Assembly: GCA_050177605.1 (NCBI GenBank)
Contig: JBFXGX010000038.1
Location: 1-12,946 of the forward strand
Length of the DNA: 12,946 nt
Direction: 5' to 3'
From: Candidatus Izemoplasmatales bacterium
Lineage (GTDB): Bacteria > Bacillota_I > Bacilli_A > Izemoplasmatales > Hujiaoplasmataceae
Below are positions 868 through 12,946 of the stretch, in pieces (positions within the stretch are counted from its first letter, which is position 1; every line of letters begins with the position of its first letter). A model generated the notes under the pieces. It worked only from the letters and a program-made list of their open reading frames with translations. It did not search any database and had not been told where the DNA came from. Position numbers and translations under genes: made by a program.

Positions 868-2103
868 TTATTGAGGAAATTGAATTGTTATCTTGGTTCC
901 ATGTCCAATAAAACTATCTATTTGCATGTTTGCACCTATTTTTTGAACTATATCTTTTACGAACTGTAAACCCAAACCACTACCTTTATCGTTCAATTTC
1001 ATTGCTTCTACTGAACGATAAGGTCCTTTTAAGATATTTTGTATTGTTTCGATGGTCATGCCAATCCCTTCATCTTCAACAACCAATTTTCTGTTTTTAT
1101 TATGAACAGAGATTGAGATATTTGATTGAGGATTCGAATAATAAAAAGCGTTGAATAATAGATGTTCAATTAAACGCTCTAGATCTTTATCAGAAATATT
1201 AATTGATAATCTATCTAGTTCCAGCGATATAGTAATTTGTTTACTTTCAAATATTTCCTTGTACTTATTTGCATATTTGTTAATAAATAGGGAAACATCC
1301 TGTATATATGGTAGTTCAACATAGTCAAGTTCGATAAACTTAGGGATTAGGTTCATTATTTTAACTGTTTCTGCTTGAATGTCCAAAAATACATCTTTAG
1401 TTGGATTCAGTTTTTCATTAACTAATGAATCCGCATAAATTCGGATAACTGAAAGGGGTGTTTTGATATCGTGCGCAATACTTTTGATATGAGACTCATA
1501 AACGGATCTTTGTTTTTCTCTTTGGATTTGACCATTCATCAGTTGAAGGTGCAATTGCTTTATTTCTTTATACGAGAAAACCGAACTTTCTGACTCAATA
1601 TTGTTTAAATCCAACTTTAACTTGGTATTTTCATTCCTCAGAAACTTATATAAAATATACATACCAAAGGCAAACAAAATAATGGAGGTTAAATTTAATC
1701 CAATGAATCCATAAAGTATATCTATACCTAATTTGGAGGACTCAAAGTTGACTGCGATATATCCAAGAAGAATGTCATCATAATATACAGGTTCATACTT
1801 TTGCAATCTCGCATCAAAATCATTAGAGAAAATGGTTTGCTCTGTAATGTTTTTGAAATGAATTGTTACATCATTATTATGTGTATAGTGCTCCAAATAT
1901 ATGATTAAAGTTTCGAAGTTCTCTTCAGTTGATAGATGAGCAGTCATATTATATAGTGCATCGTATTGTCTTGCAATTTCTTTTTGAAATTGGTTATTTG
2001 AAAATAAATAAAAGGCAATATTCAGGATAAAAATGGTTGATAGAAATATGAAGAGTACTTTTTTAAAGATTTGAGAAATAAGGAGGCTCTTTATACTATT
2101 CAT
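868..2103 (-). CDS. membrane sensor histidine kinase (HisKA + HATPase_c)
   Basis: Two TM helices flank a ~90-aa extracellular loop. H-box AHDIKTPL, N-box HLLFNAFYY, G1 VEDEGIGM, G2 GSGLGL. Overlaps the response regulator stop by 8 nt. Confidence 0.95.
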   Translation of the reverse strand: MNSIKSLLISQIFKKVLFIFLSTIFILNIAFYLFSNNQFQKEIARQYDALYNMTAHLSTEENFETLIIYLEHYTHNNDVTIHFKNITEQTIFSNDFDARLQKYEPVYYDDILLGYIAVNFESSKLGIDILYGFIGLNLTSIILFAFGMYILYKFLRNENTKLKLDLNNIESESSVFSYKEIKQLHLQLMNGQIQREKQRSVYESHIKSIAHDIKTPLSVIRIYADSLVNEKLNPTKDVFLDIQAETVKIMNLIPKFIELDYVELPYIQDVSLFINKYANKYKEIFESKQITISLELDRLSINISDKDLERLIEHLLFNAFYYSNPQSNISISVHNKNRKLVVEDEGIGMTIETIQNILKGPYRSVEAMKLNDKGSGLGLQFVKDIVQKIGANMQIDSFIGHGTKITIQFPQ

Positions 2104-2776
2104 CCTTTACCCCCACAAACTGATATCCAATCCCATAATGCGTTTTTATATATGATAGTTCGGAAGCAGGATCTATTTTTTTTCTAATGTTTTTTATGAA
2201 AACGTCTATTACACGGTCATAAGCATCACTATCTAAAAAACATTGTTCGATAATCATGTCTCTAGAAAAGACAACGTTAGGATTTGAAAGTAAATGCAAT
2301 AAGACATCATACTCATACTGTGTTAAATTGATTAATTGATTGTGAACAAAAACCTCTCTACTTAAGGGTAGAACTTTTAGATGTGAATGATTAAATGTAT
2401 AGATTGTTGGATGATTAACAACAAGTCTTTTTTCAACATTTTTGAGTTTAGCCATGACCTCATCAATTGAAAAAGGCTTAATCATATAATCATCTGCCCC
2501 AAGTGTGATGACATCGACGCGGTCTTTGATATCAATTTTCGCTGATAATACAACAATATAAACATCTGACACTTTGCGTATTTGTTTGATTAGTTCTTCT
2601 CCTTGTATTCCAGGAAGCATTAAATCTAAGAGAATAATATCAAATTTTTCATGATGAACTGCTGCAAGTGCTTCTTCACCGTTATATACTTGTTTAACTT
2701 CATGTCCATCATTACGTGCATACATCGCTAATAACTGATTGATCTTCGGATAATCTTCAACAATTAATGTTTTCAT
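2096..2776 (-). CDS. OmpR/PhoB-family response regulator
   Basis: Receiver motifs IVED, LLDLMLPG (phospho-Asp), SAK and GADDYMIKPF. Winged-helix C-terminus LTQYEYDVL...SRDMII...RVIDVFIKNIRKKI...IKTHYGIGY. TATAAT at 2805-2800 and a GGAAGTGA RBS upstream. Confidence 0.97.
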   Translation of the reverse strand: MKTLIVEDYPKINQLLAMYARNDGHEVKQVYNGEEALAAVHHEKFDIILLDLMLPGIQGEELIKQIRKVSDVYIVVLSAKIDIKDRVDVITLGADDYMIKPFSIDEVMAKLKNVEKRLVVNHPTIYTFNHSHLKVLPLSREVFVHNQLINLTQYEYDVLLHLLSNPNVVFSRDMIIEQCFLDSDAYDRVIDVFIKNIRKKIDPASELSYIKTHYGIGYQFVGVKDE

Positions 2777-2814
2777 TCAAAATCACTTCCTACGTGAATA
2801 TTATACAACAATAG

Positions 2815-2846
2815 TAATAAAATATGGGTGAGTACGTACCCACCCA
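2815..2846 (-). terminator. hairpin/intrinsic terminator between the secreted protein gene and the response regulator
   Basis: Minus strand reads TGGGTGGGTAC-GTACTCACCCA (2846-2825, one G.U pair) followed by TATTTTATT. Confidence 0.65.
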
Positions 2847-2854
2847 CATCCTAT

Positions 2855-3466
2855 TTATTCATTTGGCTGAACAGGATTTAATAAATGATCCACTATATTT
2901 GTCTTAATTTCTTTTATGCTTTCAACAAGTTCTTGAACTGAAAGATTTGACAGATCCAAATCCATAACAGCTTCCGCGAAAGAATAATCCAAACTATCTC
3001 TTTGGACATCACTCGAATGAATATACAACCATTCATAAGTACTTGCATTATTCTGGTAACCACAATTCACATATGGATCATTTACATCATATCCCATCAT
3101 GTTACCGCCCATCATGCCAAATCGTTGGGTAGAATACTCAATTTGAACATTATCTATAATATCCGATTTAATCTGCTTAATGAGTTCAACAACTTCTGAC
3201 ACGGTTTTTTCTTGGATATCTGAAGTTATTAACTCACTTGCATATCCAGAATCTAATTTTTCTTGATTTTCAGTGGATAGATGAAGATATATCTTTTCAA
3301 AGTTATTAAGACTGTAACTAGATTCCATCATGCCATGTTGGCTAAAATTTAACACAATAAAGTCATTATTATTTTCACTTGAAAATGCATTTACAACGCC
3401 CATTGATAACATGCCTAAAAATGCAACGGCAACGGTTAGTCCGAAAACAATCAAATTTTTTCTCAT
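2855..3466 (-). CDS. hypothetical secreted protein with Met-rich GMM motifs and two internal ~50-aa repeats
   Basis: 203 aa. Sec-type signal peptide (MRKN + hydrophobic stretch + VNA/F). HGMM and GMMGGNMMG motifs. GAGG RBS inside the end of the upstream gene, with a 1-nt gap to the SHOCT gene. Confidence 0.85.
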   Translation of the reverse strand: MRKNLIVFGLTVAVAFLGMLSMGVVNAFSSENNNDFIVLNFSQHGMMESSYSLNNFEKIYLHLSTENQEKLDSGYASELITSDIQEKTVSEVVELIKQIKSDIIDNVQIEYSTQRFGMMGGNMMGYDVNDPYVNCGYQNNASTYEWLYIHSSDVQRDSLDYSFAEAVMDLDLSNLSVQELVESIKEIKTNIVDHLLNPVQPNE

Positions 3467-3467
3467 A

Positions 3468-3797
3468 TTACTTATTCCTCAATTTCTCTATTAGTTTTTC
3501 GTATTCATCAATTGTTATCTCACCTTTTGCAAGGCGTGATTTTAACACTTCAATTGCTTGATCATGTCTACATTCACTCCGATAACTAAAACCGTTTAAT
3601 GCAAAGTAAATCACACCGATCCAAAATATACCCATTGCTAACATACCAAATGGCATACCCCAACCTCCCACCATATGACCATAATAAGGATAATCACTAT
3701 TCTCTGCCCACTGTTGTGAAAAATACCAGAATGCGATAGCAGTTATAATTATTAATCCAATGAAAATAGCTAAAAAAATACCTTGTTTTTTGTTCAT
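3468..3797 (-). CDS. SHOCT-domain membrane protein with Gly/Met-rich loop
   Basis: Two hydrophobic helices joined by YYGHMVGGWGMPFGMLAMG. C-terminal AIEVLKSRLAKGEITIDEYEKL is the SHOCT signature. Start moved from GTG 3806 to ATG 3797 because GAGGTG (3809-3804) is the RBS. Confidence 0.88.
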   Translation of the reverse strand: MNKKQGIFLAIFIGLIIITAIAFWYFSQQWAENSDYPYYGHMVGGWGMPFGMLAMGIFWIGVIYFALNGFSYRSECRHDQAIEVLKSRLAKGEITIDEYEKLIEKLRNK

Positions 3798-3815
3798 CTT
3801 ATTCACCTCGACTAT

Positions 3816-3859
3816 ATGATATCAAACAATTATGAATACAAAATGAATGTGAAAAGAAT
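3816..3859 (-). promoter_or_regulatory. putative OmpR-family direct-repeat box plus extended -10 for the SHOCT operon
   Basis: Plus-strand ATGAAT (3832), ATGAAT (3843) and AAGAAT (3854) have an 11-bp period. The minus-strand extended -10 TGA-TATCAT (3821-3816) lies 10 bp from the proximal half-site. There is no consensus -35. Confidence 0.65.
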
Positions 3860-3895: not shown

Positions 3896-3918
3896 TATAC
3901 CCCTCCCATGGTGGGGTG
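3896..3918. promoter_or_regulatory. CsoR operator, copy 1
   Basis: TATACCCCTCCCATGGTGGGGTG is a C-tract/G-tract pseudo-palindrome with a TAC end, typical of CsoR sites. It lies between the -10 and the RBS of csoR and is 22/23 identical to 10655-10677. Confidence 0.88.
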
Positions 3919-3932
3919 CAAGGAGGAAAACT

Positions 3933-4223
3933 ATGAGTCAATCGCATCAACACAACACAAGACATTTGAATGAGGAAAAAATTAAACAATTATTAAAAAC
4001 CGGGCGAGGTCAAGTGGAAGGCATACTAAAAATGTATGAAGAAGGAAGATACTGTGTAGATATCTCAAAACAGATACTATCAGTTATTGCTTTGCTTCAA
4101 AATGCTAATGCATTAATATTAAACGATCATATTAGTACATGCGTTACAGAAGCTATTTTCGAACAAAAAGGTAAAGAAAAAATTGATGAAATCACTGAAA
4201 TTTTAGTGAAATACTTGAGATGA
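3933..4223 (+). CDS. csoR: CsoR-family copper-sensing repressor
   Basis: GQVEGILKM..EGRYCVDI..QI...HI.TCV, with Cu(I) ligand pattern C41/H66/C70 and Y40. A CsoR-type operator lies directly upstream. Confidence 0.93.
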   Translation: MSQSHQHNTRHLNEEKIKQLLKTGRGQVEGILKMYEEGRYCVDISKQILSVIALLQNANALILNDHISTCVTEAIFEQKGKEKIDEITEILVKYLR

Positions 4224-4789
4224 GGTCTATGATGGTAAAGAAATTACTAATCAGTTTTTCCATATTTATAGCATTTATTGGACTTATTGCTTTTGTAGCA
4301 GCAAATTCACCAAATCGAAATGATATCTTGGCAAAATATGATCTAGATGGTATGACAGTAAAAGATATAGTGACCTATTTAGAGAATGATTTAAATGAAC
4401 CTACAAATTTTAGTGCAGCGATTACTGGAACAAAATTGCTTTTAGGTGATGCGACACATCAGATGGAGTTAGAACTACCTAAAGGTCAGTTTTATCTCTC
4501 ATTTGCACCCTATGTCAATCAGACTCATCCTTGCGCTAATCATAATTTAGTCACCTGTCGTGGTGAGTTAAAAAGCAAATCTTTTGAAGTTAAGATTGTT
4601 GATTCTCAAACAAATACTGTCATCATAGAAAAAACTATTATAAGCAGCTCGAATGGATTTGCCGGTATTTGGTTACCAATAAATAAACGATATCAGATTA
4701 CTGTTTCATATGAGAATTTTTCGGCAACTGACGAAGTTTCAACTTTTACTACATCAAATACATGTCTTACAACACTTAAACTAGCCTAA
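4220..4789 (+). CDS. cueP: CueP-family extracytoplasmic copper-binding protein with N-terminal signal/anchor
   Basis: FYLSFAPYVNQTHPCANHNLVTCRGEL, NGFAGIWLP and C-terminal TCLTTLKL match CueP motifs. The real start may be ATG 4229 or 4232, after GAGGT at 4222-4226. Confidence 0.88.
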   Translation: MRSMMVKKLLISFSIFIAFIGLIAFVAANSPNRNDILAKYDLDGMTVKDIVTYLENDLNEPTNFSAAITGTKLLLGDATHQMELELPKGQFYLSFAPYVNQTHPCANHNLVTCRGELKSKSFEVKIVDSQTNTVIIEKTIISSSNGFAGIWLPINKRYQITVSYENFSATDEVSTFTTSNTCLTTLKLA

Positions 4790-4801
4790 AGGAGGCAAAT
4801 T

Positions 4802-6925
4802 ATGGACAAACATAAACACAATCATCATCACAAAGATAATAAAAATGAGCATATCGACCACAATAAAAAAGCCATGAATCACGAAACGCATGATGACCAC
4901 ATACACCATCATGAAGAAATTCACAACCATAGTCACGGTGAAAGTTACAAAGATGCAGAGCATGAAAGTCATGAAGGGCATCACGATCACCATACTATGA
5001 TGGTTAAAGATTTTAAAAGAAGGTTTTTTATTTCACTAGGATTATTAGTTCCAATTTTAACTCTCTCACCTATGATTCAGGAATTTTTCGATTTGAATCT
5101 AAGGTTTTCTGGAGACTTATACATTCTTTTGACACTCAGCACTTTGTTATTTATATATGGCGGATTACCATTTTTTAAAGGTACTTTTGAAGAGTTGAAA
5201 CAAAAAGCACCAGCTATGATGTCTCTCATTGGCCTTGCTATTGTCGTTGCCTATATCTATAGTGCCTATACCGTCATATTCCAAACCGGTCAAGATTTTT
5301 TCTGGGAATTATCAACACTCATCTCAATCATGCTACTCGGTCACTGGATTGAAATGAAGTCTGTATTAGGTGCATCAAGAGCTTTAGAAGAACTCTTAAA
5401 ACTGATGCCTGAAGAAGCTCACGTCATCGATCAAGATGGTCACATTAATGATATATCAGTCACTCAAGTTAAAGTAGGTATGATTTTATTAGTCAGACCT
5501 GGAGAAAAGGTTCCTATTGACGGAAAAATCACAGAAGGAAAGTCTTCTGTAAACGAATCCATGTTAACCGGTGAATCTGTTCCTGTCGATAAATCACCTG
5601 GAGACGAATTAATAGGTGGTTCAATCAATGCTGAAGGTTCACTGAAATATAAAGTGACACGTATTGGTGATGAGACATTTCTTTCTCAAGTCATTAAACT
5701 CGTCAGGGATGCTCAAAAAACACGTTCAAAAACGCAAAGAATAGCAGATATTGCGGCAAAATACTTATTCTATGTTGCATTACTTGGTGGAATATCTACA
5801 TTTGTTATCTGGATGTTACTGGGTAAAGATGTAGGATTTGCTATGGAAAGAGCAGTTACTGTCGTCATTATTTCATGCCCCCATGCACTTGGATTAGCTA
5901 CACCACTCGTTACTGCTGTTTCATCAAGCATTGGTGCAAAACATGGGTTACTCATTCGGAATCGAGCAAATTTCGAAAATGCACGCAAAATTAACACTGT
6001 TGTATTTGATAAAACAGGCACACTAACTAGAGGTGAATTCGGAATTTCAAAAATTGAAAGCTTTAGTTTGAGTGAAAACGAACTTCTATCATTTGCATAT
6101 GCAATTGAGAATGAGTCCGAACATCCTATAGCAAAAGCAATCGTTAGAGCTGCTAAAGATAAAAAAGTGCAACTTCAAAAAGGTAAAGATATCACAGCAA
6201 TTCCTGGTAAAGGACTTGTTGGTATAGTACAACAATCTACTGTTGAGATCGTAAGTCCGGGTTATATTAAAGAGTTGAAGATACCATTCGATATTAGCGC
6301 ATATGAAGCATTAGCGAATCAAGGCAACACTGTTGTTTTTGTCCTTAAGGATAAAAAACTGATGGGTTATATCGCTTTAAATGATATGATTAGAGAAACC
6401 TCAAAGGAAGCGATTGAATCGCTTAAAGAAATGGGCATTGATTCATACATGCTTACAGGGGATAATCAAAAAGTTGCGAATGAAGTTGCCAAAAAGTTGG
6501 GCATAAAACATGTATTTGCCGAGGTTTTACCTGATCAAAAATCAGATAAGATTGAATCACTAACAAAAGAAGGACGTCTTGTAGCAATGACTGGTGATGG
6601 CATCAATGATGCACCAGCCCTAGCAAAAGCACACCTCGGTATTGCAATTGGTGCAGGTACAGATGTAGCGATTGAAACTGCAGATGTCATACTCGTTAAG
6701 AGTAACCCAATGGACGTCGTAAATATCATAAAGCTTTCTAAGTCAACCTATAAGAAAATGATTCAAAACCTCATATGGGCAACAGGATATAATATTATAG
6801 CTATTCCTTTAGCTGCTGGTGTATTAAGTTCTATTGGTATTCTATTGAGTCCTGCAGTTGGAGCAGTATTAATGTCACTAAGTACAGTCATTGTAGCTAT
6901 CAACGCTCGGTTGCTAAAAATCTAA
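4802..6925 (+). CDS. copB: copper-translocating P1B-3 ATPase with His-rich N-terminus
   Basis: 22 His in the first 64 aa. TGES, CPH transmembrane motif, DKTGT, SEHP, GDGINDAPAL, GYN and MSLS. AGGAGG RBS. Confidence 0.95.
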   Translation: MDKHKHNHHHKDNKNEHIDHNKKAMNHETHDDHIHHHEEIHNHSHGESYKDAEHESHEGHHDHHTMMVKDFKRRFFISLGLLVPILTLSPMIQEFFDLNLRFSGDLYILLTLSTLLFIYGGLPFFKGTFEELKQKAPAMMSLIGLAIVVAYIYSAYTVIFQTGQDFFWELSTLISIMLLGHWIEMKSVLGASRALEELLKLMPEEAHVIDQDGHINDISVTQVKVGMILLVRPGEKVPIDGKITEGKSSVNESMLTGESVPVDKSPGDELIGGSINAEGSLKYKVTRIGDETFLSQVIKLVRDAQKTRSKTQRIADIAAKYLFYVALLGGISTFVIWMLLGKDVGFAMERAVTVVIISCPHALGLATPLVTAVSSSIGAKHGLLIRNRANFENARKINTVVFDKTGTLTRGEFGISKIESFSLSENELLSFAYAIENESEHPIAKAIVRAAKDKKVQLQKGKDITAIPGKGLVGIVQQSTVEIVSPGYIKELKIPFDISAYEALANQGNTVVFVLKDKKLMGYIALNDMIRETSKEAIESLKEMGIDSYMLTGDNQKVANEVAKKLGIKHVFAEVLPDQKSDKIESLTKEGRLVAMTGDGINDAPALAKAHLGIAIGAGTDVAIETADVILVKSNPMDVVNIIKLSKSTYKKMIQNLIWATGYNIIAIPLAAGVLSSIGILLSPAVGAVLMSLSTVIVAINARLLKI

Positions 6926-7024: not shown

Positions 7025-7948
7025 TTATGCAATCACTAAGTCTACTTGATAGGGCAGATTTTTCATCTTATGTCTGCTAAATAACAAATAACCTACACCT
7101 AAAACAACAAAAACAAGTGACATTAATATATTTACTGGAATATTCATAATCATTAGAGCATCTCCATATGCACCGTTAACTCTCATCGGCTCAATGATTA
7201 ATCCTCTACCTAGACCATACCATATCAAATAAAGTCCTAGATTTTCGCCTATTTTGAGCAAACGTTTTTTCTTTAAAGCAATCAGGGTGACAAGTAAAAA
7301 TAGGTTCCATATGCCTTCATATAAAAATGTAGGATGATGAACTACATTACCCAGTGTCATTTGTTCAACAATGAATTTAGGCAATAAATCAATAATCCAT
7401 GCTGATTGGATCGCTGGTCCATATGCTTCATGGTTCATAAAATTACCAAACCTACCAATGATTTGTCCAATGAGAAACCCAATCATTAACGTATCGATGA
7501 GTGGTAATAATTTAATTTTTTTAATCTTACAAAAAATAGGTACAAAAACTAGAGTGGTAATGATTGCTCCATGAATTGCTAATCCACCTTTTGAGATATT
7601 CATTATGTCCAGAAAAGTCTTATAATGTGGAATCGGATCAAAGAGCACATAATAAAGTCTAGCTCCTAAAAGTGCTAAAGGTAACCCAATTAAGAGACCG
7701 TCATAGATAATATCCTTAGGATAATTTAAACGATTGAGTTCATTCTGACTATAATATGCCGCTATAAATACTCCTGTCAAAATGAAAATTGCATACCAAT
7801 AGATTTGAATGCTACCAAAATCAATTGCTACTCTTGAATAGGGGGCGCTACTCTGGCTTCCTATCGCAAGAAACAAGACCATCAAAAAGATGTGAATCAT
7901 GATCATATACTGATGATGTTGCTGTTTTGTGTTATGATGTGTGTGCAT
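7025..7948 (-). CDS. lgt: prolipoprotein diacylglyceryl transferase with His-rich N-terminal extension
   Basis: Motifs YWYAIF, GARLYYV, GGLAIHGA, GQIIGRFGNFMNHEAYG, HPTFLYEG and YGLGRGLIIEPMR. AAGGAG RBS. Overlaps the copA 3' end by 17 nt. Confidence 0.96.
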   Translation of the reverse strand: MHTHHNTKQQHHQYMIMIHIFLMVLFLAIGSQSSAPYSRVAIDFGSIQIYWYAIFILTGVFIAAYYSQNELNRLNYPKDIIYDGLLIGLPLALLGARLYYVLFDPIPHYKTFLDIMNISKGGLAIHGAIITTLVFVPIFCKIKKIKLLPLIDTLMIGFLIGQIIGRFGNFMNHEAYGPAIQSAWIIDLLPKFIVEQMTLGNVVHHPTFLYEGIWNLFLLVTLIALKKKRLLKIGENLGLYLIWYGLGRGLIIEPMRVNGAYGDALMIMNIPVNILMSLVFVVLGVGYLLFSRHKMKNLPYQVDLVIA

Positions 7949-10406
7949 GAACTAGCTCCTTATCACCCTTTACGAATGACTGTTTTTTTAATCTCAATGA
8001 ATTATAGATTACATTAAGAGAACTAATTGACATTGCAGCAGCACCAATCATTGGATGCAATAAACCTAACATCGCAAATGGGATTGCAATCGCATTATAG
8101 AACCATGCCCAGAAGTAGTTTTGCTTAATTTTTCTAAAGATAGCTTTCGATAACTGAATCGAAGTGAGTAATGTATGCAACTCACCAGATACTAAAGTAA
8201 CATCAGCTGCTTCTTTTGCAATATCTGTACCTGTTCCAATGGCAATACCTACATTAGCTTGCTTAAGCGCTGGTGCATCATTAATACCGTCACCGACCAT
8301 TGCGACTAATCCAAATTCGCTCTGGAGTTTTGAAATTTCGTTTACTTTTCCTTCAGGTAAAACATCAGAGATAATTCTTGTTATACCAGCTTTTTTTGCG
8401 ATTGCTTGAGCAGTTCTTGAATTGTCTCCAGTAATCATAGCTGTCGTTATACCAAGGTTTTCGATTGCCCGAATAACATGTACTGCATCAGGTTTTAATG
8501 CATCTGCAACAGCAATGATACCAAGTATCTCTATATCATCTGCTAGAATCATCACCGTTTTAGCTTCATTTTCAAGTTGTTGCATCATTGATTCTAATCC
8601 ATCATAAGAATGACCAATCGATTTGATTAGTTTTCTGTTACCAAAATAATATGTCTTATTATCTAGAATACCTTTTATACCCATGCCAGATATGGCTTCA
8701 AAATCTCTTGGGTTTAATAGCTTTTGATTATTATTTTTTACATCTTCGATAATTGCCATTGCTAATGGATGCTCTGATCCTGTTTCAAGTGATCCAGCGA
8801 CATGCATCATTTGATGTTCACTTATACCTATAGCATGCTTGTCAGTCACTACGGGTTTCCCATATGTTAACGTGCCAGTTTTATCAAAAGCAATGGCTTT
8901 GATATCCTTAAGTGTTTGAACTGCTTCACCGTTGCGAATCAGAATACCTTTTTCTGCGCCAACACCACTACCAACCATTAACGCTGTAGGTGTTCCCAAT
9001 CCAAGTGCACACGGGCACGCTATAACTAACACAGCAGTCGCAGTAATAAATGCTAACGTTAATGGAGTTTGATCTGTGTTAATCCAAGGTAAGATAGGTT
9101 CCATATACTCTAAGATACTCAGATGGAAATTTTGAAAAATTAAAAAAGAACTGAACGTGAGTACTGTTAAAACCATAATTGCTGGCACAAAGTAGGATGT
9201 AATTCTGTCTGCAAATTCTTGTATAGGCACTTTGGACCCCTGACAAGCTTCAACCATCTCAATAACTTGAGATAAGAATGTTTCTTTACCAACTTTAGTA
9301 ACTTCTACTTTGAGCAAGCCATCTTTATTAATGGTTGCTCCGATTACATTGTCACCCACATGCTTTTTGACCGGCATCGATTCACCTGTTGCAATCGATT
9401 CATCAATTAAACTTTTACCTTCAATAATCATTCCGTCTGTTGGTATTTTTTCGCCTGGTCTAATAATCATGATATCTTTAACACTGAGTTCATTCGTTAA
9501 AACTTCGATCTCATTGCCATCGACTAAAATGCGTGCAGTTTTCGCACCTAGTTCCATTAATTTTTTGATGGCTTGGGATGCTTTTCCTTTAGCCTTACTT
9601 TCCAGGAATTTTCCAATCAAGTGAAATGTCATAATTGTTGTTGCCATTTCGATAAATGTTGTGATTGGGAAAAACAATCCTGTGAGACCGATGAGATAGG
9701 GTGGAATAGATCCGAGTGACACAAGGACATCCATATTCGGTTTCAATGATTTAAGAGAGTAATAACTTCCTCTGTGCACGTGACGGCCAATGATAAATAT
9801 GACTGGGAAACCCAGTATGGCAATGATCCAAGTGTATAATGGAATTTCAACAACAAACATGTGAATCAGCATGAGTGACATCATCAAAATAGTTATTGTT
9901 GAACTCAATTGAACTCTTTTTTTAGCGGAATTCATCTTGAGTGTATCAGGATCAACCGATTCATCATTTGTTACTTCGAGACTAATCTTATATCCAATGC
10001 TTTGGATGCGGTGTTTGATATCACTAAAACGAATGACGCGATCGTCATATTGAATGGTAACTTTCTCCGTAGCGAGATTAACATGAGCATCAATAATCCC
10101 ATCCATCTTCAACAGTGTATTATCAATACTGTTTGCGCATGTTGCACAACTCATTCCATCAACTCTGGCAGTCACAGTCTTATGATTGTTTTCGATAGTA
10201 ATGAGTTCATATCCTATCCCCTTAACAGCATTCATTGCAAGATTTGAACTATAACTGTTATCATCAAATTGAATTGTTGCAGTTTCAGTTGCTAAATTCA
10301 CAGAAACATCAATTATCCCTTCAACTTTTCTTAATGCTTTTTCAACATGGTTGACACACGAAGCACAAGTCATACCATTCACTCGATATTTAATATTACT
10401 CGACAT
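7932..10406 (-). CDS. copA: Cu(I)-exporting P1B-1 ATPase
   Basis: Two HMA domains (GMTCASC, GMSCATC). TGES, CPC, DKTGT, SEHP, GDGINDAPAL, FYN and MSISS. Confidence 0.96.
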   Translation of the reverse strand: MSSNIKYRVNGMTCASCVNHVEKALRKVEGIIDVSVNLATETATIQFDDNSYSSNLAMNAVKGIGYELITIENNHKTVTARVDGMSCATCANSIDNTLLKMDGIIDAHVNLATEKVTIQYDDRVIRFSDIKHRIQSIGYKISLEVTNDESVDPDTLKMNSAKKRVQLSSTITILMMSLMLIHMFVVEIPLYTWIIAILGFPVIFIIGRHVHRGSYYSLKSLKPNMDVLVSLGSIPPYLIGLTGLFFPITTFIEMATTIMTFHLIGKFLESKAKGKASQAIKKLMELGAKTARILVDGNEIEVLTNELSVKDIMIIRPGEKIPTDGMIIEGKSLIDESIATGESMPVKKHVGDNVIGATINKDGLLKVEVTKVGKETFLSQVIEMVEACQGSKVPIQEFADRITSYFVPAIMVLTVLTFSSFLIFQNFHLSILEYMEPILPWINTDQTPLTLAFITATAVLVIACPCALGLGTPTALMVGSGVGAEKGILIRNGEAVQTLKDIKAIAFDKTGTLTYGKPVVTDKHAIGISEHQMMHVAGSLETGSEHPLAMAIIEDVKNNNQKLLNPRDFEAISGMGIKGILDNKTYYFGNRKLIKSIGHSYDGLESMMQQLENEAKTVMILADDIEILGIIAVADALKPDAVHVIRAIENLGITTAMITGDNSRTAQAIAKKAGITRIISDVLPEGKVNEISKLQSEFGLVAMVGDGINDAPALKQANVGIAIGTGTDIAKEAADVTLVSGELHTLLTSIQLSKAIFRKIKQNYFWAWFYNAIAIPFAMLGLLHPMIGAAAMSISSLNVIYNSLRLKKQSFVKGDKELVHAHTS

Positions 10407-10410
10407 TTTA

Positions 10411-10638
10411 TTATTCCTCTTCGATGGTCGTTAAGTATTCGACTTGATATCCTGTTTGAACAATTGCCTCAAGATACATATTTGAATTGGGTTTTTCCTC
10501 TTCAGTCAATACTTTTGCAATATGTGTTGAAAAATTAATATCAACATCGATTGCTCCCGCTGATTTTAAAGCTGAAGTAATGCGATTGATGCATCCGATG
10601 CAATGGATATCTCCGATTCTATAAATTAGCGTTGCCAT
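10411..10638 (-). CDS. copZ: CopZ-like HMA-domain copper chaperone
   Basis: 75 aa with IGDIHCIGC (CxxC) and an AIVQTGYQV tail. AGGAGG RBS. Lies 4 nt upstream of copA. Confidence 0.88.
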   Translation of the reverse strand: MATLIYRIGDIHCIGCINRITSALKSAGAIDVDINFSTHIAKVLTEEEKPNSNMYLEAIVQTGYQVEYLTTIEEE

Positions 10639-10654
10639 AAGTAATTCCTCCTTT

Positions 10655-10677
10655 TATACCCCTCCCGTGGTGGGGTG
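10655..10677. promoter_or_regulatory. CsoR operator, copy 2
   Basis: TATACCCCTCCCGTGGTGGGGTG, between the -10 and the RBS of copZ. One mismatch to copy 1. Confidence 0.88.
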
Positions 10678-10685
10678 TCATCTAT

Positions 10686-10714
10686 ACTATATCAAACTAT
10701 TCATTAGATGTCAA
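10686..10714 (-). promoter_or_regulatory. sigma-A promoter of copZ-copA-lgt
   Basis: TTGACA (10714-10709), a 17-bp spacer, then extended -10 TGA-TATAGT (10691-10686). The -35 lies inside the 3' end of the upstream CDS. Confidence 0.85.
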
Positions 10715-11623
10715 TCCTTCATCTTCTAAATAGTAGATGTGTCTAATTCCATCTGTGTTTTCTACATAAGCAGTAATATATGTATCCTTTGATAAGATAA
10801 GATCATTAACAGTTGTTACAAAACCATTATCATTTAGGGTTTTTGGATAGTTTTTATCTGAACTATTCTTACTTAACCCATATCTGTATGAACGACTTAT
10901 AAAATCAGTACAGTAGAATTTGTTTTTTGTGTCCATAATGAAAAGGAAATTATATAATGAACGATTTTCTAAATGTTCATTGGCATATGACATAGTTTGA
11001 TCCAGTTTTTCTTCATCTATATTTTTTACTCTTAATACTACGAATTTTTCTCTGTAATAAGAACCATAATAAGGATATGACAAGTCGTTTTCTCCTCTAA
11101 AATATGGCAACATCCAATAATTAGTAGAAGATTGTCTTACACCAACTGAATAATCATGTGTACCATCTGAAGGGTCTTTGATTATATCAAAGATACTTTC
11201 ATCATCTTTTGGGAAGCCTACAGCTTCAATGAATTGATTGTTACCATTATTCAGTGCAGCGTGTCCTCCAACAAAAAAACTCATCAATTGATGAAAACCG
11301 AATATGTTTGGAAAAGGTGATTCCTGAGTCATAAATATATCCCCTTTTTTCCCAATAAATGGTTCATCTTTGGTTGTATAAAAAAGGCTACGTGTATCCG
11401 CTTTCTCATATTCATTGATTCTTTCGACCGGGTGATACATTCTTATTTCTTCCATCCCATTATCAAAATAGATGGTTACTGTCTCTCCCTCTATACCTCG
11501 TTCTTTAAAATCTCTTATTAACTGATTGACTTTTATATTTTGATTAAGTCCTTGCAAGAATATTGAAACGGATAAAATAAGTACAATTAGAAAAAACCTT
11601 TTACGTATTTTTTTTACTTTCAT
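10697..11623 (-). CDS. membrane-anchored permuted papain-like NlpC/P60 enzyme (YiiX/YebB/YaeF, C92 family)
   Basis: 308 aa from ATG 11623 (GAGGT RBS). Basic N-terminus plus a TM helix. KKGDIF, GHAAL...IEA and a C-terminal YNF...KFYCTDFISRSY place the catalytic His before the Cys, which is the permuted order. Confidence 0.85.
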   Translation of the reverse strand: MKVKKIRKRFFLIVLILSVSIFLQGLNQNIKVNQLIRDFKERGIEGETVTIYFDNGMEEIRMYHPVERINEYEKADTRSLFYTTKDEPFIGKKGDIFMTQESPFPNIFGFHQLMSFFVGGHAALNNGNNQFIEAVGFPKDDESIFDIIKDPSDGTHDYSVGVRQSSTNYWMLPYFRGENDLSYPYYGSYYREKFVVLRVKNIDEEKLDQTMSYANEHLENRSLYNFLFIMDTKNKFYCTDFISRSYRYGLSKNSSDKNYPKTLNDNGFVTTVNDLILSKDTYITAYVENTDGIRHIYYLEDEGLTSNE

Positions 11624-11641
11624 GTTGAATACCTCATAATC

Positions 11642-11674
11642 AATATACAATAATAATGTGAACGAATTATGAAT
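11642..11674 (-). promoter_or_regulatory. second putative OmpR-family box plus -10
   Basis: Plus-strand GTGAAC (11658) and ATGAAT (11669) have an 11-bp period. The minus-strand -10 TATATT (11647-11642) lies 10 bp away, the same geometry as at 3816-3848. Confidence 0.6.
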
Positions 11675-11775
11675 AAATAATAGTACTTCGAATGTGACAA
11701 AGCTGTTAACCAGAAGTTGTTTTAACAAAGCTATCAAATTAATATTTCAGATTTGAAATGAATTATTAGGATAAC

Positions 11776-11805
11776 AAAAAAAGACAGTTCAATAGCAGAA
11801 CCGTC
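11776..11805 (-). terminator. intrinsic terminator
   Basis: Minus strand reads GACGGTTC-TGCTATT-GAACTGTC-TTTTTTT. Confidence 0.85.
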
Positions 11806-11832
11806 ATCTACGGGATGATCGAGTTTAAATTT

Positions 11833-11991
11833 CTATAAATTGTTTTTTTGATAATTCAACGCTATATCTTTGATAGAATTTGGAATAATAGTCTTGACTC
11901 CAAAAAACTCATTAATCTTGTGATGTGTAAATCCAATCGCATCTATTTCGATCGATTGATTTAAATAATCATGATCATCAACTTCAGCATC
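11833..11991 (-). pseudogene. 3' remnant of a gene, possibly a zincin-like metallopeptidase
   Basis: Reads DAEVDDHDYLNQSIEIDAIGFTHHKINEFFGVKTIIPNSIKDIALNYQKNNL* and ends 27 nt before the terminator stem. Y..Q.IE.DA..F resembles the third-ligand helix of HExxH peptidases. Upstream of ~11991 the frame is just the antisense of the recombinase. Confidence 0.5.
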
Positions 11992-12946
11992 AGCGGTACT
12001 TCCACCAAGCACAGGAAACAGTTTAATAATATGATGGATGCTGCAAAGCGTGGTGAAATTGATTTGATCATGACTAAGTCAATCTCACGATTCGCTAGAA
12101 ACACAGTTGATTGCTTAAACTACATCAGAGAGATGCGAGCTATCAATGTCGAGATCTTCTTCGAAAAAGAAAACATCTATTCTTCAGATCCAAAGGTGGA
12201 CTTCCTATTAACCATCATGTCGTCCATCGCCCAAGAGGAAGCAAGAAACGTGAGCGAGAACGTCAAATGGAATGTTCAAAAGCGTTTCAACAATAGCGTT
12301 CCAATTGTGAATCACAATCGGTTCTTAGGTTATACCAAAGACAAACGAGGTGGCAACTTAATCGTTGTTCCTGAAGAAGCTAAAATCGTCCGTGAAATCT
12401 TCCAAATGTATGTGAGTGGAATCGGACCGATGAAGATTGCAAAGCACATGGAATCCTTAGGTGCTACCACCGGTGCTGGTGCAACCAAATGGAGTATGTC
12501 CACAGTCGCAGTTATTCTTAAGAACGAAAAATACATCGGTGATTTGGTTCAACAGAAAACACTCACGGTTGATTACCTTTCACATAAGAAAGTTAAGAAT
12601 AAAGAACTCGCTCCGATGTATCACACCGAGAATGCGCATGAAGCAATCATCGATAGAGAAACATTCCTCCTTGCTCAAAGGATCAGAGAGGATCGTAGCA
12701 AGGTAAAAGTGGGTAAGGATAAGAACCTGGCCAAGTACAATGTAACCTATCCATTCTCAGCATTCATCGTTTGCTCAGAGTGTGGTCGAACCTTAAAGAG
12801 ACGTTATTGGAACTACGGTACACCAGCTCAAAGAGTCATGCAACAATGTGGTGGCTACATCGACGGTAAAGCTCACTGTAAGGCTAAAGCAACATACCAA
12901 GAAATGATTGAAGGTGCAACTGTGAAAATGCTAAACGAGGTGTTTT
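11989..12946 (+). pseudogene. large serine recombinase, 5'-truncated (runs off the right edge)
   Basis: Not in the ORF track. Open frame ISGTSTKHRKQFNNMMDAAKRGEIDLIMTKSISRFARNTVDCL...FEKENI...LLTIMSSIAQEEARNVSENVKW...FLGY...EEAKIVREIFQMY...ILKNEKYIGD...HEAII...CSECG...C...C covers the resolvase C-half, recombinase and Zn-ribbon domains. There is an in-frame TAA at 11962-11964 and no YxRVS catalytic motif. Confidence 0.92.

Follow-up and report, generated by a model that had tools for sequence, protein, structure and literature searches.

A described counterpart of this locus is the lit2-lgt2 module of Listeria and Enterococcus, in which, according to the available part of PMC8275575, lit2 shares a transcript with lgt2 and copper genes. 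The annotated plasmid NC_022046 bears out this precedent, on which an earlier sequence-only reading of the locus had drawn, and a two-component system is encoded on the Listeria plasmid as well. Mollicute lipoproteins are N-acylated, yet no lnt-like gene is known for them in the available text of PMC3850990. Thioester acyl-enzyme chemistry is described for the LRAT/PLAAT enzymes in the accessible portion of PMC7387801.

The window (the whole stretch of 12,946 nucleotides that was analyzed) represents a horizontally mobile island for copper resistance in wall-less, mollicute-type bacteria, under two switches, the second of them proposed. Island DNA is 93–96% identical across >9 kb in four organisms, the likeness to other islands stops at ~11660–11980, and a recombinase fragment that begins at position 42 of the 145-position Resolvase profile flanks the island. 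This is a short contig that may have been assigned to the wrong bin; its GC content matches that of the genome (0.342 vs 0.344), which is 89% complete. The genes are as follows:

868..3806, minus strand: whole SHOCT-unknown-RR-HK operon
868–2103, minus strand: histidine kinase
2096–2776, minus strand: OmpR/PhoB-type response regulator
2855–3466, minus strand: Met-rich exported protein, no known family
3468–3806, minus strand: SHOCT membrane protein
3933..6925, plus strand: whole csoR-cueP-copB stretch
3933–4223, plus strand: csoR (PF02583, 81.1 bits)
4220–4789, plus strand: cueP (PF21172, 161.1 bits)
4802–6925, plus strand: copB, His-rich CopB-type P-type ATPase (TIGR01511, 628.8 bits)
7025..7948, minus strand: accessory lgt, prolipoprotein diacylglyceryl transferase (PF01790, 198.4 bits)
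7932..10406, minus strand: copA, P1B-type Cu ATPase with two N-terminal HMA domains (E1-E2 ATPase, 167.8 bits)
10411..10638, minus strand: copZ copper chaperone (HMA, 32 bits)
10697..11623, minus strand: C92-like gene, 308 aa from ATG, GAGG ribosome site
11971..12945, plus strand: large serine recombinase fragment, cut by the contig end

The co-oriented minus-strand run of C92-like gene, copZ, copA and lgt without an intervening terminator, as first described, was recovered: a consensus scan detected no terminator in either intergenic gap, and its three weak sites all lie inside copA. The copA product also matches TIGR01511 (542 bits) and TIGR01525 (602.5 bits). The noted overlap of lgt with copA amounts to 17 nt, and the lgt product scores 173.5 bits with TIGR00544 (cut-off 118.9). 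A separate lgt in the genome had been raised as a point to check, and two additional lgt genes were found elsewhere. At its N-terminus the island Lgt carries an additional His-rich tail, and it has one more hydrophobic helix; six of seven aligned island-type Lgts share the tail, which the chromosomal Lgt (27% identity) lacks.

The C92-like protein and its family

The C92-like protein is a permuted NlpC/P60 (YaeF/YiiX-like) enzyme that faces outward on an N-terminal anchor. Its K/R-rich N-terminus leads into a hydrophobic helix (helix 2–41 in the AF2 model, pLDDT 90). Pfam C92 (PF05708) matches at 23.3 bits, under the gathering score of 27, and a profile search of PDB sequences with the family returned no match at E <= 1. 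The papain fold proposed from the sequence agrees with the structural matches of the model, which were YiiX (2IF6, Z 12.2), 3KW0 (Z 11.7), TseH, a hydrolase-type effector (Z 8.2), and PLAAT4 (7zot, Z 6.2). His121, E133, Tyr224 and Cys238 are invariant among 44 aligned family members, and the predicted catalytic centre is His121/Tyr224/Cys238; both the anchor and the intact His/Cys pair of the first description are thus real features of the protein. Tyr224 precedes Cys238 by 14 residues, the same spacing as that of LnsA Tyr129/Cys143 (available part of PMC13559823). The suggested likeness to LnsA failed at the level of profiles: the LnsA model NF041769 gave 17.5 bits vs a cut-off of 225, which rules the protein out as a sequence-level LnsA, and the LnsA and YiiX models matched 1 and 13 of the 44 members, respectively, none near cut-offs. 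In the Atlas ranking, the LnsA-like cluster came only 24th (0.87).

The protein belongs to an Acholeplasmataceae family (strong matches assigned by locus titles) with a housekeeping and a copper clade. The housekeeping clade, which includes a family member of A. laidlawii, sits after rnpA-yidC-jag; of 79 loci, 52 have the copy behind yidC-jag, as do 8 of 12 distant loci. Copper-linked copies (18 of 80 loci) form a single clade (SH-aLRT 92, quick tree) with cop genes immediately downstream in 18/18 loci and in at least six gene orders; copies 49–72% identical to the window's protein also directly precede cop genes, in five other gene orders. An lgt is found near the copper-clade gene in 10 of 15 assessable copper loci and is absent within 8 kb from the other 5, as it is from all 62 housekeeping loci. 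The recurrence of a C92-lgt-cop neighbourhood, which had been raised as a point to check, holds in the copper clade fully for copper and only in part for lgt: the conserved linkage is to copper genes, rather than to lgt. In Peloplasma aerotolerans (L017), lgt starts 89 nt directly after the C92-like gene, and no promoter or operator was seen in the gap.

Every sampled genome of three GTDB families contains the gene (f15, 22/22; f20, 6/6; f28, 6/6), and Lit was found in none of them (0/22, 0/6 and 0/6). Lit and a distant family member occur together in six genomes, and distant members behind jag are also present in PBP-bearing bacteria (4 of 5 tested). The ancestral substrate of the family need not have been a lipoprotein.

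Candidate functions of the enzyme

Lipoprotein N-acylation, by analogy with Listeria lit2-lgt2, is the best reading, though a tentative one with somewhat less than an even chance. Lnt, Lit and PBP were all not found in the host genome at its present completeness, and the C92-like enzyme is a good candidate for the so far missing mollicute enzyme by which lipoproteins gain their third fatty acid. Tethered by its N-terminal helix with the catalytic domain outside the cell, it would draw an acyl chain from a membrane phospholipid, carry it as a thioester on Cys238 and move it to the free alpha-amino group of diacylglyceryl-cysteine lipoproteins, the products of Lgt and Lsp. Equivalent roles would be those of LnsA in staphylococci and, by other chemistry, of Lit2 on the Listeria copper plasmid. 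N-acylation would abolish a copper-binding site at the membrane surface, and the copper-clade copy would provide this activity, or augment that of a housekeeping paralogue where present, under envelope or copper stress.

Several observations count against N-acylation, namely a sequence that is not LnsA-like, the lack of a linked LnsB, the missing lgt at 5 of 15 copper loci and at all 62 housekeeping loci, the co-occurrence with Lit in six genomes and the distant members in PBP bacteria. LnsA requires LnsB; the island encodes no LnsB-type partner, just as none had been visible from the sequence, and the genome has its three CPBP genes elsewhere.

Possible, but unlikely, is that the enzyme remodels membrane lipids instead of lipoproteins. 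As a phospholipase A or acyltransferase of PLAAT/LRAT type that faces outward, it would alter outer-leaflet phospholipids or glycolipids, for example by acylating glycolipid head groups, and make the membrane less copper-permeable or copper-reactive. The fold and catalytic centre are common to PLAAT enzymes (7zot, Z 6.2), the protein is membrane-anchored in wall-less cells, and Acholeplasma produces acylated glycolipids. Gene context points the same way, with linkage to copper genes and to an envelope-type two-component operon and not strictly to lgt, and with a housekeeping copy that adjoins yidC and not lgt or lsp. However, lipid remodeling leaves unexplained the accessory lgt in the most widespread island and the direct C92-lgt pair of P. 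aerotolerans, and the published copper precedent, in the available text of PMC8275575, is about lipoprotein N-termini.

Less probable still is a hydrolase (cysteine peptidase or amidase) that would work at the membrane surface, trim or degrade proteins or peptides after their export, such as copper-damaged or mis-metallated proteins, and serve quality control of YidC and Sec clients. Such an activity would suit the Pfam label (permuted papain-like amidase), the match to TseH, the place of the housekeeping copy behind yidC-jag and the distant members in walled bacteria. Against it, the gene is kept throughout the three GTDB families, and its strong matches come from Acholeplasmataceae, which are wall-less, so that peptidoglycan is an unlikely substrate there; the host genome lacks a PBP, as does G158 of f28, the sole genome of the three families checked.

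The CsoR switch and a proposed second switch

The regulatory elements found are:

3820..3847, minus strand: two overlapping one-mismatch copies of the direct-repeat box, 30–41 nt before the SHOCT gene start
3899..3917, plus strand: second, near-identical CsoR-type operator, before csoR-cueP-copB
10658..10676, plus strand: CsoR-type operator, 19-bp C-tract/G-tract inverted repeat, past the -10 element and ahead of the copZ ribosome site
10686..10714, minus strand: copZ-copA-lgt promoter, TTGACA, 17 nt, TG-n-TATAGT (consensus scan, 11/12 positions)
11642..11647, minus strand: -10-like hexamer TATATT with TG directly upstream, read from the sequence, 9 nt past the box
11657..11673, minus strand: direct-repeat box TTCAYA-N5-TTCAYA, 11-bp period, exact match, 50 nt before the ATG of the C92-like gene
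11783..11805, minus strand: terminator-like hairpin and T run upstream of the C92 promoter (consensus scan)

The CsoR operator pattern matches twice in the window vs 0.03 times expected, a count reached by 0 of 200 shuffles. In its strict form it occurs in 15 of 18 copper-linked loci and has no match across 823 kb of housekeeping loci. A promoter and strict operator directly follow the C92 gene in 13 of the 18, C/G-tract palindromes are visible there in three further ones, and in diverged loci the gene is likewise followed by TTGACA and a -10 arrangement. The first switch can be read from the sequence: with a consensus promoter and near-identical operator ahead of each, csoR-cueP-copB and copZ-copA-lgt are both repressed by CsoR, and cytoplasmic copper would therefore induce efflux plus the extra His-tailed Lgt. 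The proposal of an lgt under a CsoR-type operator was borne out. Because promoter and operator stand between the C92 gene and copZ, with the -35 element inside the last codons of the C92 gene, only copZ-copA-lgt comes under CsoR; the C92 gene lies upstream of both elements and outside the control of the 10658–10676 operator, and no CsoR operator was found upstream of it.

The C92 gene has its own control region instead. The direct-repeat box, presumably a binding site for an OmpR/PhoB-type response regulator, occupies the usual -35 position; TATATT would serve as the -10 element, and the hairpin would shield the gene from upstream transcription. Of the 18 exact boxes in 1.07 Mb of related loci, 16 stand immediately ahead of copper-clade genes; 13 of 18 copper-clade loci and 0 of 62 housekeeping loci carry one. 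The window and 11 of 12 related loci have a one-mismatch box at -41 to -49 of the SHOCT-two-component operon. From this conserved cis-element we infer a second switch: by way of the direct-repeat box, which has an 11-bp period and replaces the -35 element, the island's OmpR/PhoB-type two-component system would activate the C92-like gene as well as the SHOCT-unknown-RR-HK operon in which it is itself encoded. The regulator of the Listeria plasmid copper cluster shares 40% identity with the island response regulator.

That the four genes form a single copper/CsoR-inducible operon, with the papain-fold enzyme and Lgt co-transcribed, is thus improbable, and the sequence-only reading has to be amended here. 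The genes share an orientation without a terminator between them, and RNA-library contigs from four studies cover all four and bridge both junctions; since contigs span the C92-copZ junction in four runs, read-through is possible. This RNA support is weak because it consists of contigs only, which cannot prove single transcripts, and the promoter and operator that most copper-linked loci have behind the C92 stop codon, the lack of an operator upstream of the gene and its own box-type promoter all speak against one operon. Of the earlier interpretation, the accessory lgt under CsoR in a mobile copper island stands, as do the Listeria/Enterococcus precedent, the permuted papain fold, the repeated linkage of the clade to copper genes and the lack of Lnt and Lit in the host; a single four-gene CsoR unit and a closer HMM likeness to LnsA than to YiiX do not. 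Very improbable, finally, is a passenger gene that marks the island edge without a role in copper resistance: it is terminal in the shared island, next to where similarity stops, but the 49–72% identical copies still directly precede cop genes, all 18 copper-linked copies are one clade, and the same promoter box precedes the island's two-component operon.

Comparison with known systems

Like LnsA of staphylococcal LnsAB, the C92-like protein is an exported, membrane-associated permuted NlpC/P60 enzyme in which His, Cys and a signature Tyr, 14 residues ahead of that Cys, are essential. The nearest structures are of the same kinds for both (YiiX 2IF6, 3KW0, PLAAT/HRASLS), those for LnsA being named by the LnsAB authors (available part of PMC7387801). 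LnsA is shorter (189 aa in the same text, vs 308 aa), and the C92-like protein has ~80 extra residues between anchor and core. The LnsA signal peptide is cleaved, whereas the N-terminal helix of the C92-like protein may stay on as an anchor; unlike LnsA, the C92-like protein has no linked LnsB-type partner but is linked to copper genes. The best fold matches, YiiX/YaeF (Pfam C92) and BCE_A0238 (PDB 3KW0), share the permuted order with His before Cys; they have no assigned function, and the C92-like family adds an N-terminal membrane anchor and an N-terminal beta region. The permuted papain fold and a conserved polar residue 12 past the catalytic His (here E133) are also common to LRAT/PLAAT (HRASLS) enzymes, which are eukaryotic and cytosol-facing with C-terminal anchors and match the model weakly (Z 6.2). 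Lnt catalyzes the reaction proposed here, with an outward-facing catalytic cysteine such as the C92-like enzyme would use, but its nitrilase-type fold is unrelated and it was not found in the host genome.

The lit2-lgt2 module of the Listeria/Enterococcus plasmids and the island are both mobile copper clusters with an accessory lgt (~41% identical), a copper-responsive repressor, a two-component system and a candidate lipoprotein-tailoring gene. The tailoring slot is filled in Listeria by Lit2, an integral membrane transacylase (TIGR01906/PF07314), and in the island would be filled by a papain-fold enzyme of unrelated fold. The repressor is CopY in the Listeria module and CsoR in the island, where, unlike in that module, lgt is fused into the copZ-copA unit.

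Gene content and regulation of the copper island

The window corresponds to an entire contig (C38) of the host assembly, which comprises 1.94 Mb in 66 contigs and is 89% complete. Gene identities based on Pfam and NCBIfam scores agreed with the sequence-only reading in that a gene for a C92-like protein (a membrane-anchored, permuted papain-fold enzyme) is followed by copZ, copA and lgt. The genes and regulatory elements of the island are as follows.

Features of the copper island and its flanks
2-701, ArsR-type gene, cut by the left contig end
868-2103, minus strand, histidine kinase
2096-2776, minus strand, response regulator, OmpR/PhoB-type
2855-3466, minus strand, Met-rich exported protein of no known family
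3468-3806, minus strand, SHOCT membrane protein
3899-3917, second CsoR-type operator, near-identical to that at copZ, between the -10 element and the csoR ribosome site
3933-4223, plus strand, csoR (PF02583, 81.1 bits)
4220-4789, plus strand, cueP, CueP-family copper-binding protein (161 bits)
4802-6925, plus strand, His-rich CopB-type ATPase
7025-7948, minus strand, lgt, overlapping copA by 17 nt (full-length matches; PF01790, 198.4 bits, cut-off 24.9; TIGR00544, 173.5 bits, cut-off 118.9)
7932-10406, minus strand, copA
10411-10638, minus strand, copZ
10658-10676, predicted CsoR-type operator, 19-bp C-tract/G-tract inverted repeat, directly after the copZ promoter
10714-10686, minus strand, predicted promoter of copZ-copA-lgt (TTGACA, 17 nt, TG-n-TATAGT; 11/12 consensus)
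10697-11623, minus strand, C92-like gene, 308 aa, ATG start, GAGG ribosome site
11657-11673, exact direct repeat TTCAYA-N5-TTCAYA, 50 nt before the C92-like ATG
9 nt downstream of the direct-repeat box, TATATT hexamer
11805-11783, terminator-like hairpin, further upstream of the C92-like gene
11971-12945, large serine recombinase, cut by the contig end

The start of cueP overlaps the stop of csoR. The CueP family is periplasmic according to Pfam, and here it is encoded in a genome without PBP genes.

We scanned genomes for further members of the C92-like family and analyzed the best 80 of the 146 loci. In 18 of these 80, cop genes lie immediately downstream of the C92-like gene (copper-linked loci), whereas the other 62 (housekeeping loci) have neither cop genes nor an lgt within 8 kb. 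The island type C92-copZ-copA-lgt accounts for 12 of the 18 copper-linked loci, three of the 12 being cut before the lgt position, and the remaining six show five further gene orders (L016, L017, L018, L019/L020 and L058). An lgt is present in 10 of the 15 copper-linked loci that could be assessed; in the locus of Peloplasma aerotolerans (L017) it lies 89 nt directly after the C92-like gene, with no promoter or operator visible between the two. Recurrent linkage, which the sequence-only reading had named as a check, holds for the cop genes within one clade, and for lgt in part of that clade only.

The four genes had also been read as a single CsoR-controlled unit, which the positions of the regulatory elements contradict. 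The -35 element of the copZ promoter falls inside the last codons of the C92-like gene and the operator follows that promoter, so that the predicted CsoR-type units are copZ-copA-lgt and csoR-cueP-copB, with the C92-like gene upstream of the switch under a putative promoter of its own that carries a response-regulator-type box. Both elements of a CsoR-regulated copper operon, the repressor and a predicted operator between promoter and first gene, are found in the window, where the operator pattern has two matches against 0.03 expected (none of 200 shuffles reached two). The strict operator pattern recurs in 15 of the 18 copper-linked loci, with no match in 823 kb of control loci. It lies directly after the C92-like gene in 13 of the 18, and three further loci have C/G-tract palindromes, read by eye, in that position. 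No CsoR-type operator was found ahead of the C92-like gene in any of the 18.

The direct-repeat box points to the second switch. Of the 18 exact copies of TTCAYA-N5-TTCAYA in the 1.07 Mb of the 80 related loci, 16 fall in 13 of the 18 copper-linked loci, 39-126 nt ahead of the point where the alignment of the C92-like protein begins, and the exact box is absent between -250 and +60 in all 62 housekeeping loci. Both the window and 11 of 12 loci have a one-mismatch box 41-49 nt ahead of the start of the operon for the SHOCT protein, the Met-rich protein, the response regulator and the histidine kinase. These one-mismatch matches are weaker evidence than the exact ones; at up to one mismatch the window contains four boxes against 0.99 expected, a number reached by one of 200 shuffles. 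A direct repeat with an 11-bp period that replaces the -35 element is the usual arrangement for activators of the PhoB/OmpR type. Because the box is shared and the island regulator is of the OmpR/PhoB type, the C92-like gene would belong to the regulon of the island two-component system, and the box delimits a small, testable regulon of this uncharacterized system. The resulting two-switch architecture is the best-supported part of our reading of the island.

The response regulator is 40% identical to the regulator of a Listeria plasmid copper cluster. In nearly all copper-linked loci, the two-component system is found together with the SHOCT protein, whose outer loop contains His and Met, and with the Met-rich 203-aa exported protein; the latter had no family match, and its Atlas search scores were all 0.82 or lower. 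In strain MO-XQ, the similarity to the window stops inside the direct-repeat box (L006, position 7966), so that this copy has lost the exact box. Two more family members occur in the MO-XQ genome, one of the copper clade (L016) and one of the housekeeping type (L082).

Fold and family of the C92-like protein

The sequence-only reading had called the C92-like enzyme LnsA-like, after the catalytic partner of the staphylococcal lipoprotein N-acylation pair LnsA/LnsB. At the sequence level this does not hold: the window protein scores 17.5 bits with the LnsA model (NF041769, equivalog cut-off 225) and 16.6 bits with the NCBIfam YiiX model (cut-off 216), both noise-level, and NF041769 returned only noise across the whole host genome. 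Among 44 family members, the YiiX model matched 13, the YaeF model two and the LnsA model one (E <= 0.1 for LnsA). The Pfam model Peptidase_C92 (PF05708) gives 23.3 bits, below its gathering score of 27; a precomputed PF05708 hit exists for 27 of 110 homologues, and a distant member (L092) reaches 32.3 bits. The family profile had no hits at E <= 1 among PDB sequences.

In a confident AlphaFold model built on the family alignment (pLDDT 90, pTM 0.89), residues 2-41 form a long helix at the N-terminus, and the alpha/beta domain after it superposes on YiiX (2if6_B; Z 12.2, rmsd 2.3, 144 residues) and on 3kw0_A (Z 11.7, 160 residues); the same two structures are the top Foldseek matches (2if6, E 6e-3; 3kw0, E 8.6e-3), and TseH (Z 8.2) and PLAAT4 (Z 6.2) match more weakly. 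His121, Glu133, Tyr224 and Cys238 are invariant in the 44 sequences, with the His before the Cys as in the permuted order and Tyr224 14 residues ahead of Cys238. The fold matches and this residue pattern together identify a permuted NlpC/P60 enzyme of the YaeF/YiiX branch, which is akin to LnsA in kind and lies outside the LnsA family. Since a K/R-rich N-terminus precedes the hydrophobic helix, the catalytic domain is predicted to face outward.

All source-named organisms among the 110 homologues are mollicutes (Acholeplasmataceae or 'Tenericutes'), and the named carriers include Acholeplasma laidlawii (ABX82020.1), A. oculi, A. granularum, A. hippikon, Alteracholeplasma palmae and Mariniplasma anaerobium. 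A tblastn search of 72,556 plasmids with the C92-like protein gave no match. In a quick IQ-TREE tree, the 18 copper-linked copies form one clade apart from the 55 jag-linked copies (SH-aLRT 92). Three alignment columns in all discriminate the copper clade from the housekeeping clade, none of them by a His, Cys or Met.

Most housekeeping loci share a context in which divergent dnaN and dnaA genes are followed by rnpA, yidC, jag, the C92-like gene, rmuC and a class-II aminoacyl-tRNA synthetase gene; jag occupies position -1 in 52 of 79 loci, and the neighbor names were checked by Pfam on one locus (L022, 5459-10066). Distant homologues (21-31% identical) from other GTDB families of the class follow rnpA-yidC-jag in eight of 12 loci (L090-L101), and four of five tested genomes of distant homologues encode PBPs. 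This synteny and the PBP-bearing genomes indicate that the near-origin position is old and extends beyond wall-less cells. The partnership of the YidC/Jag cluster with a permuted papain gene is likewise old.

Accessory Lgt, host genome and island mobility

A separate housekeeping lgt had been named as a point to check, and the host genome contains two chromosomal lgt genes besides the island copy, both on contig C5 (59230-60003 and 7965-8831). One is located two genes past jag (rnpA-yidC-jag-pth-lgt), and the other lies within a 431-aa open frame, which is long for Lgt. The island Lgt shares ~41% identity with its counterpart on Listeria and Enterococcus plasmids and has ~35 extra N-terminal residues (7844-7948) comprising a His-rich tail and a hydrophobic helix; this extension is present in six of seven aligned island-type Lgts and absent from the chromosomal Lgt. 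The tail may be metal-binding or regulatory, like the His-rich N-terminus of the neighboring CopB-type pump. Complex prediction for the island Lgt and the C92-like protein scored 0.00 in two runs that lacked controls and carries no weight either way.

In the host genome the C92-like family is represented by the island copy only, and the family is absent from 15 other genomes of the host's GTDB family; in three other GTDB families it is present throughout (f15, 22/22; f20, 6/6; f28, 6/6). Searches of the 89% complete assembly found no Lnt and no PBP, and no match to Lit (PF07314) at E <= 0.01. Together with a single Mur-ligase-type gene, the missing PBP fits a wall-less cell within the limits of that completeness.

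Over a length of more than 9 kb, the island matches DNA of Paracholeplasma vituli, strain MO-XQ, strain zrk7 and a Mariniplasma MAG at 93-96% identity, and the similarity stops just upstream of the promoter of the C92-like gene (~11660-11980). Beyond this point, the region 11971-12945 looks like a junction with another element; the serine recombinase aligns to the 145-position Resolvase profile from position 42 onward and thus seems to lack its N-terminal catalytic part. At the left end, the ArsR-type gene matches, at 96% identity, DNA ahead of the C92-like gene in MO-XQ and zrk7; in those strains it is followed by the gene for a second P-type ATPase, which has 29% identity to CopA. The island is a mosaic, possibly with a Cd/Zn-type module aboard. 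Although a contig this short could be misbinned, its GC content is the same as that of the genome.

At least half of the sampled words occur in 20 sequencing runs from 16 studies of landfill, sludge, groundwater and wastewater, one run being possibly the source DNA and not independent. RNA-library contigs from four studies cover all four genes and bridge both junctions; such contigs show neither single transcripts nor transcript ends nor expression levels.

A possible role in lipoprotein tailoring and comparison with known systems

Of the earlier interpretation of the island as a copper-inducible lipoprotein acylation system, the accessory lgt, the copper linkage and the permuted papain enzyme stand, and the single CsoR unit, LnsA membership and strict lgt linkage do not. 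An outward-facing acyl-enzyme that acts on membrane-bound substrates and is tied to copper stress is by far the more probable description of the C92-like protein; lipoprotein N-acylation as its specific mechanism is a tentative proposal that we hold with somewhat more doubt than belief. The kind of enzyme and its placement on the outer face favor N-acylation, as do a host without peptidoglycan synthesis genes, the accessory lgt that travels along (in one case as a direct C92-lgt pair), the published connection of copper with lipoprotein tailoring, and an N-acyltransferase role that is unfilled in mollicutes. Mass spectrometry, as a passage of PMC3850990 states, detected N-acylated lipoproteins in firmicutes and mollicutes for which no lnt-like gene is known. 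The distribution is also mostly complementary to that of Lit (0/40 sampled genomes of families f13, f15, f20 and f28 against 39/40 for the C92-like family), an argument that is soft because related genomes are not independent. Against N-acylation stand the kinship to LnsA, by sequence only at the superfamily level, the absence of an LnsB-type partner, the lack of lgt in one third of the copper-linked loci and in every housekeeping locus, the joint occurrence of Lit and a distant member in six genomes, and the distant members in walled bacteria.

A broader hypothesis, which we consider less likely than not, is that the family including ABX82020.1 is the Acholeplasma-type lipoprotein N-acyltransferase: a single-component, membrane-anchored and LnsB-free permuted papain enzyme encoded by a housekeeping gene fixed after rnpA-yidC-jag, whose copper clade would have been captured by islands, placed under a two-component switch and used to block the copper-binding N-termini of surface lipoproteins when copper rises. 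If true, copper and lipoprotein N-acylation would have become linked independently for a third time. The analysis names a concrete, testable candidate N-acyltransferase, found in A. laidlawii, and gives an experimental handle on an old question. Among the papers listed in our literature search, one result set of which was judged by title, none ties the C92-like family to copper or to Acholeplasma lipoproteins.

Among known systems, LnsA is close in the kind of enzyme. According to an excerpt of PMC13559823, the LnsA system converts diacyl to triacyl lipoproteins with the sn-1 acyl chain of phosphatidylglycerol, and His60, Tyr129 and Cys143 of LnsA are essential; its authors' list of nearest relatives, in the section of PMC7387801 concerned, names YiiX, 3KW0 and the HRASLS/PLAAT enzymes. 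LnsA shares with the C92-like protein, for which outer-face export is predicted, the His/Cys dyad and Tyr, the PPNE fold and the Tyr-Cys spacing of 14. However, LnsA needs the CPBP-family protein LnsB; the window encodes no such partner, and the host genome has three PF02517 genes outside it.

The lit2-lgt2 module is close in setting. In the Listeria and Enterococcus plasmids, the neighbors of lgt are a TIGR01906 (Lit-family) gene, copY, a multicopper oxidase gene and a two-component system; copper induces lit2, which shares a transcript with lgt2 and copper determinants, and the N-terminus of the diacyl lipopeptide is a binding site for copper (both from portions of PMC8275575). The window is likewise a mobile copper cluster with an accessory lgt, and by analogy the C92-like gene would be copper-induced and its product would modify the alpha-amino group of lipoproteins. 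That a copper island of a different bacterial group once more combines an additional lgt with a possible enzyme for N-terminal tailoring strengthens the idea that copper drives lipoprotein acylation diversity. The C92-like protein does not have the fold of Lit/Lit2 (PF07314); the island is a copper island in which an lgt2-type gene is joined by a candidate enzyme for N-terminal tailoring that differs in fold and stands under another switch.
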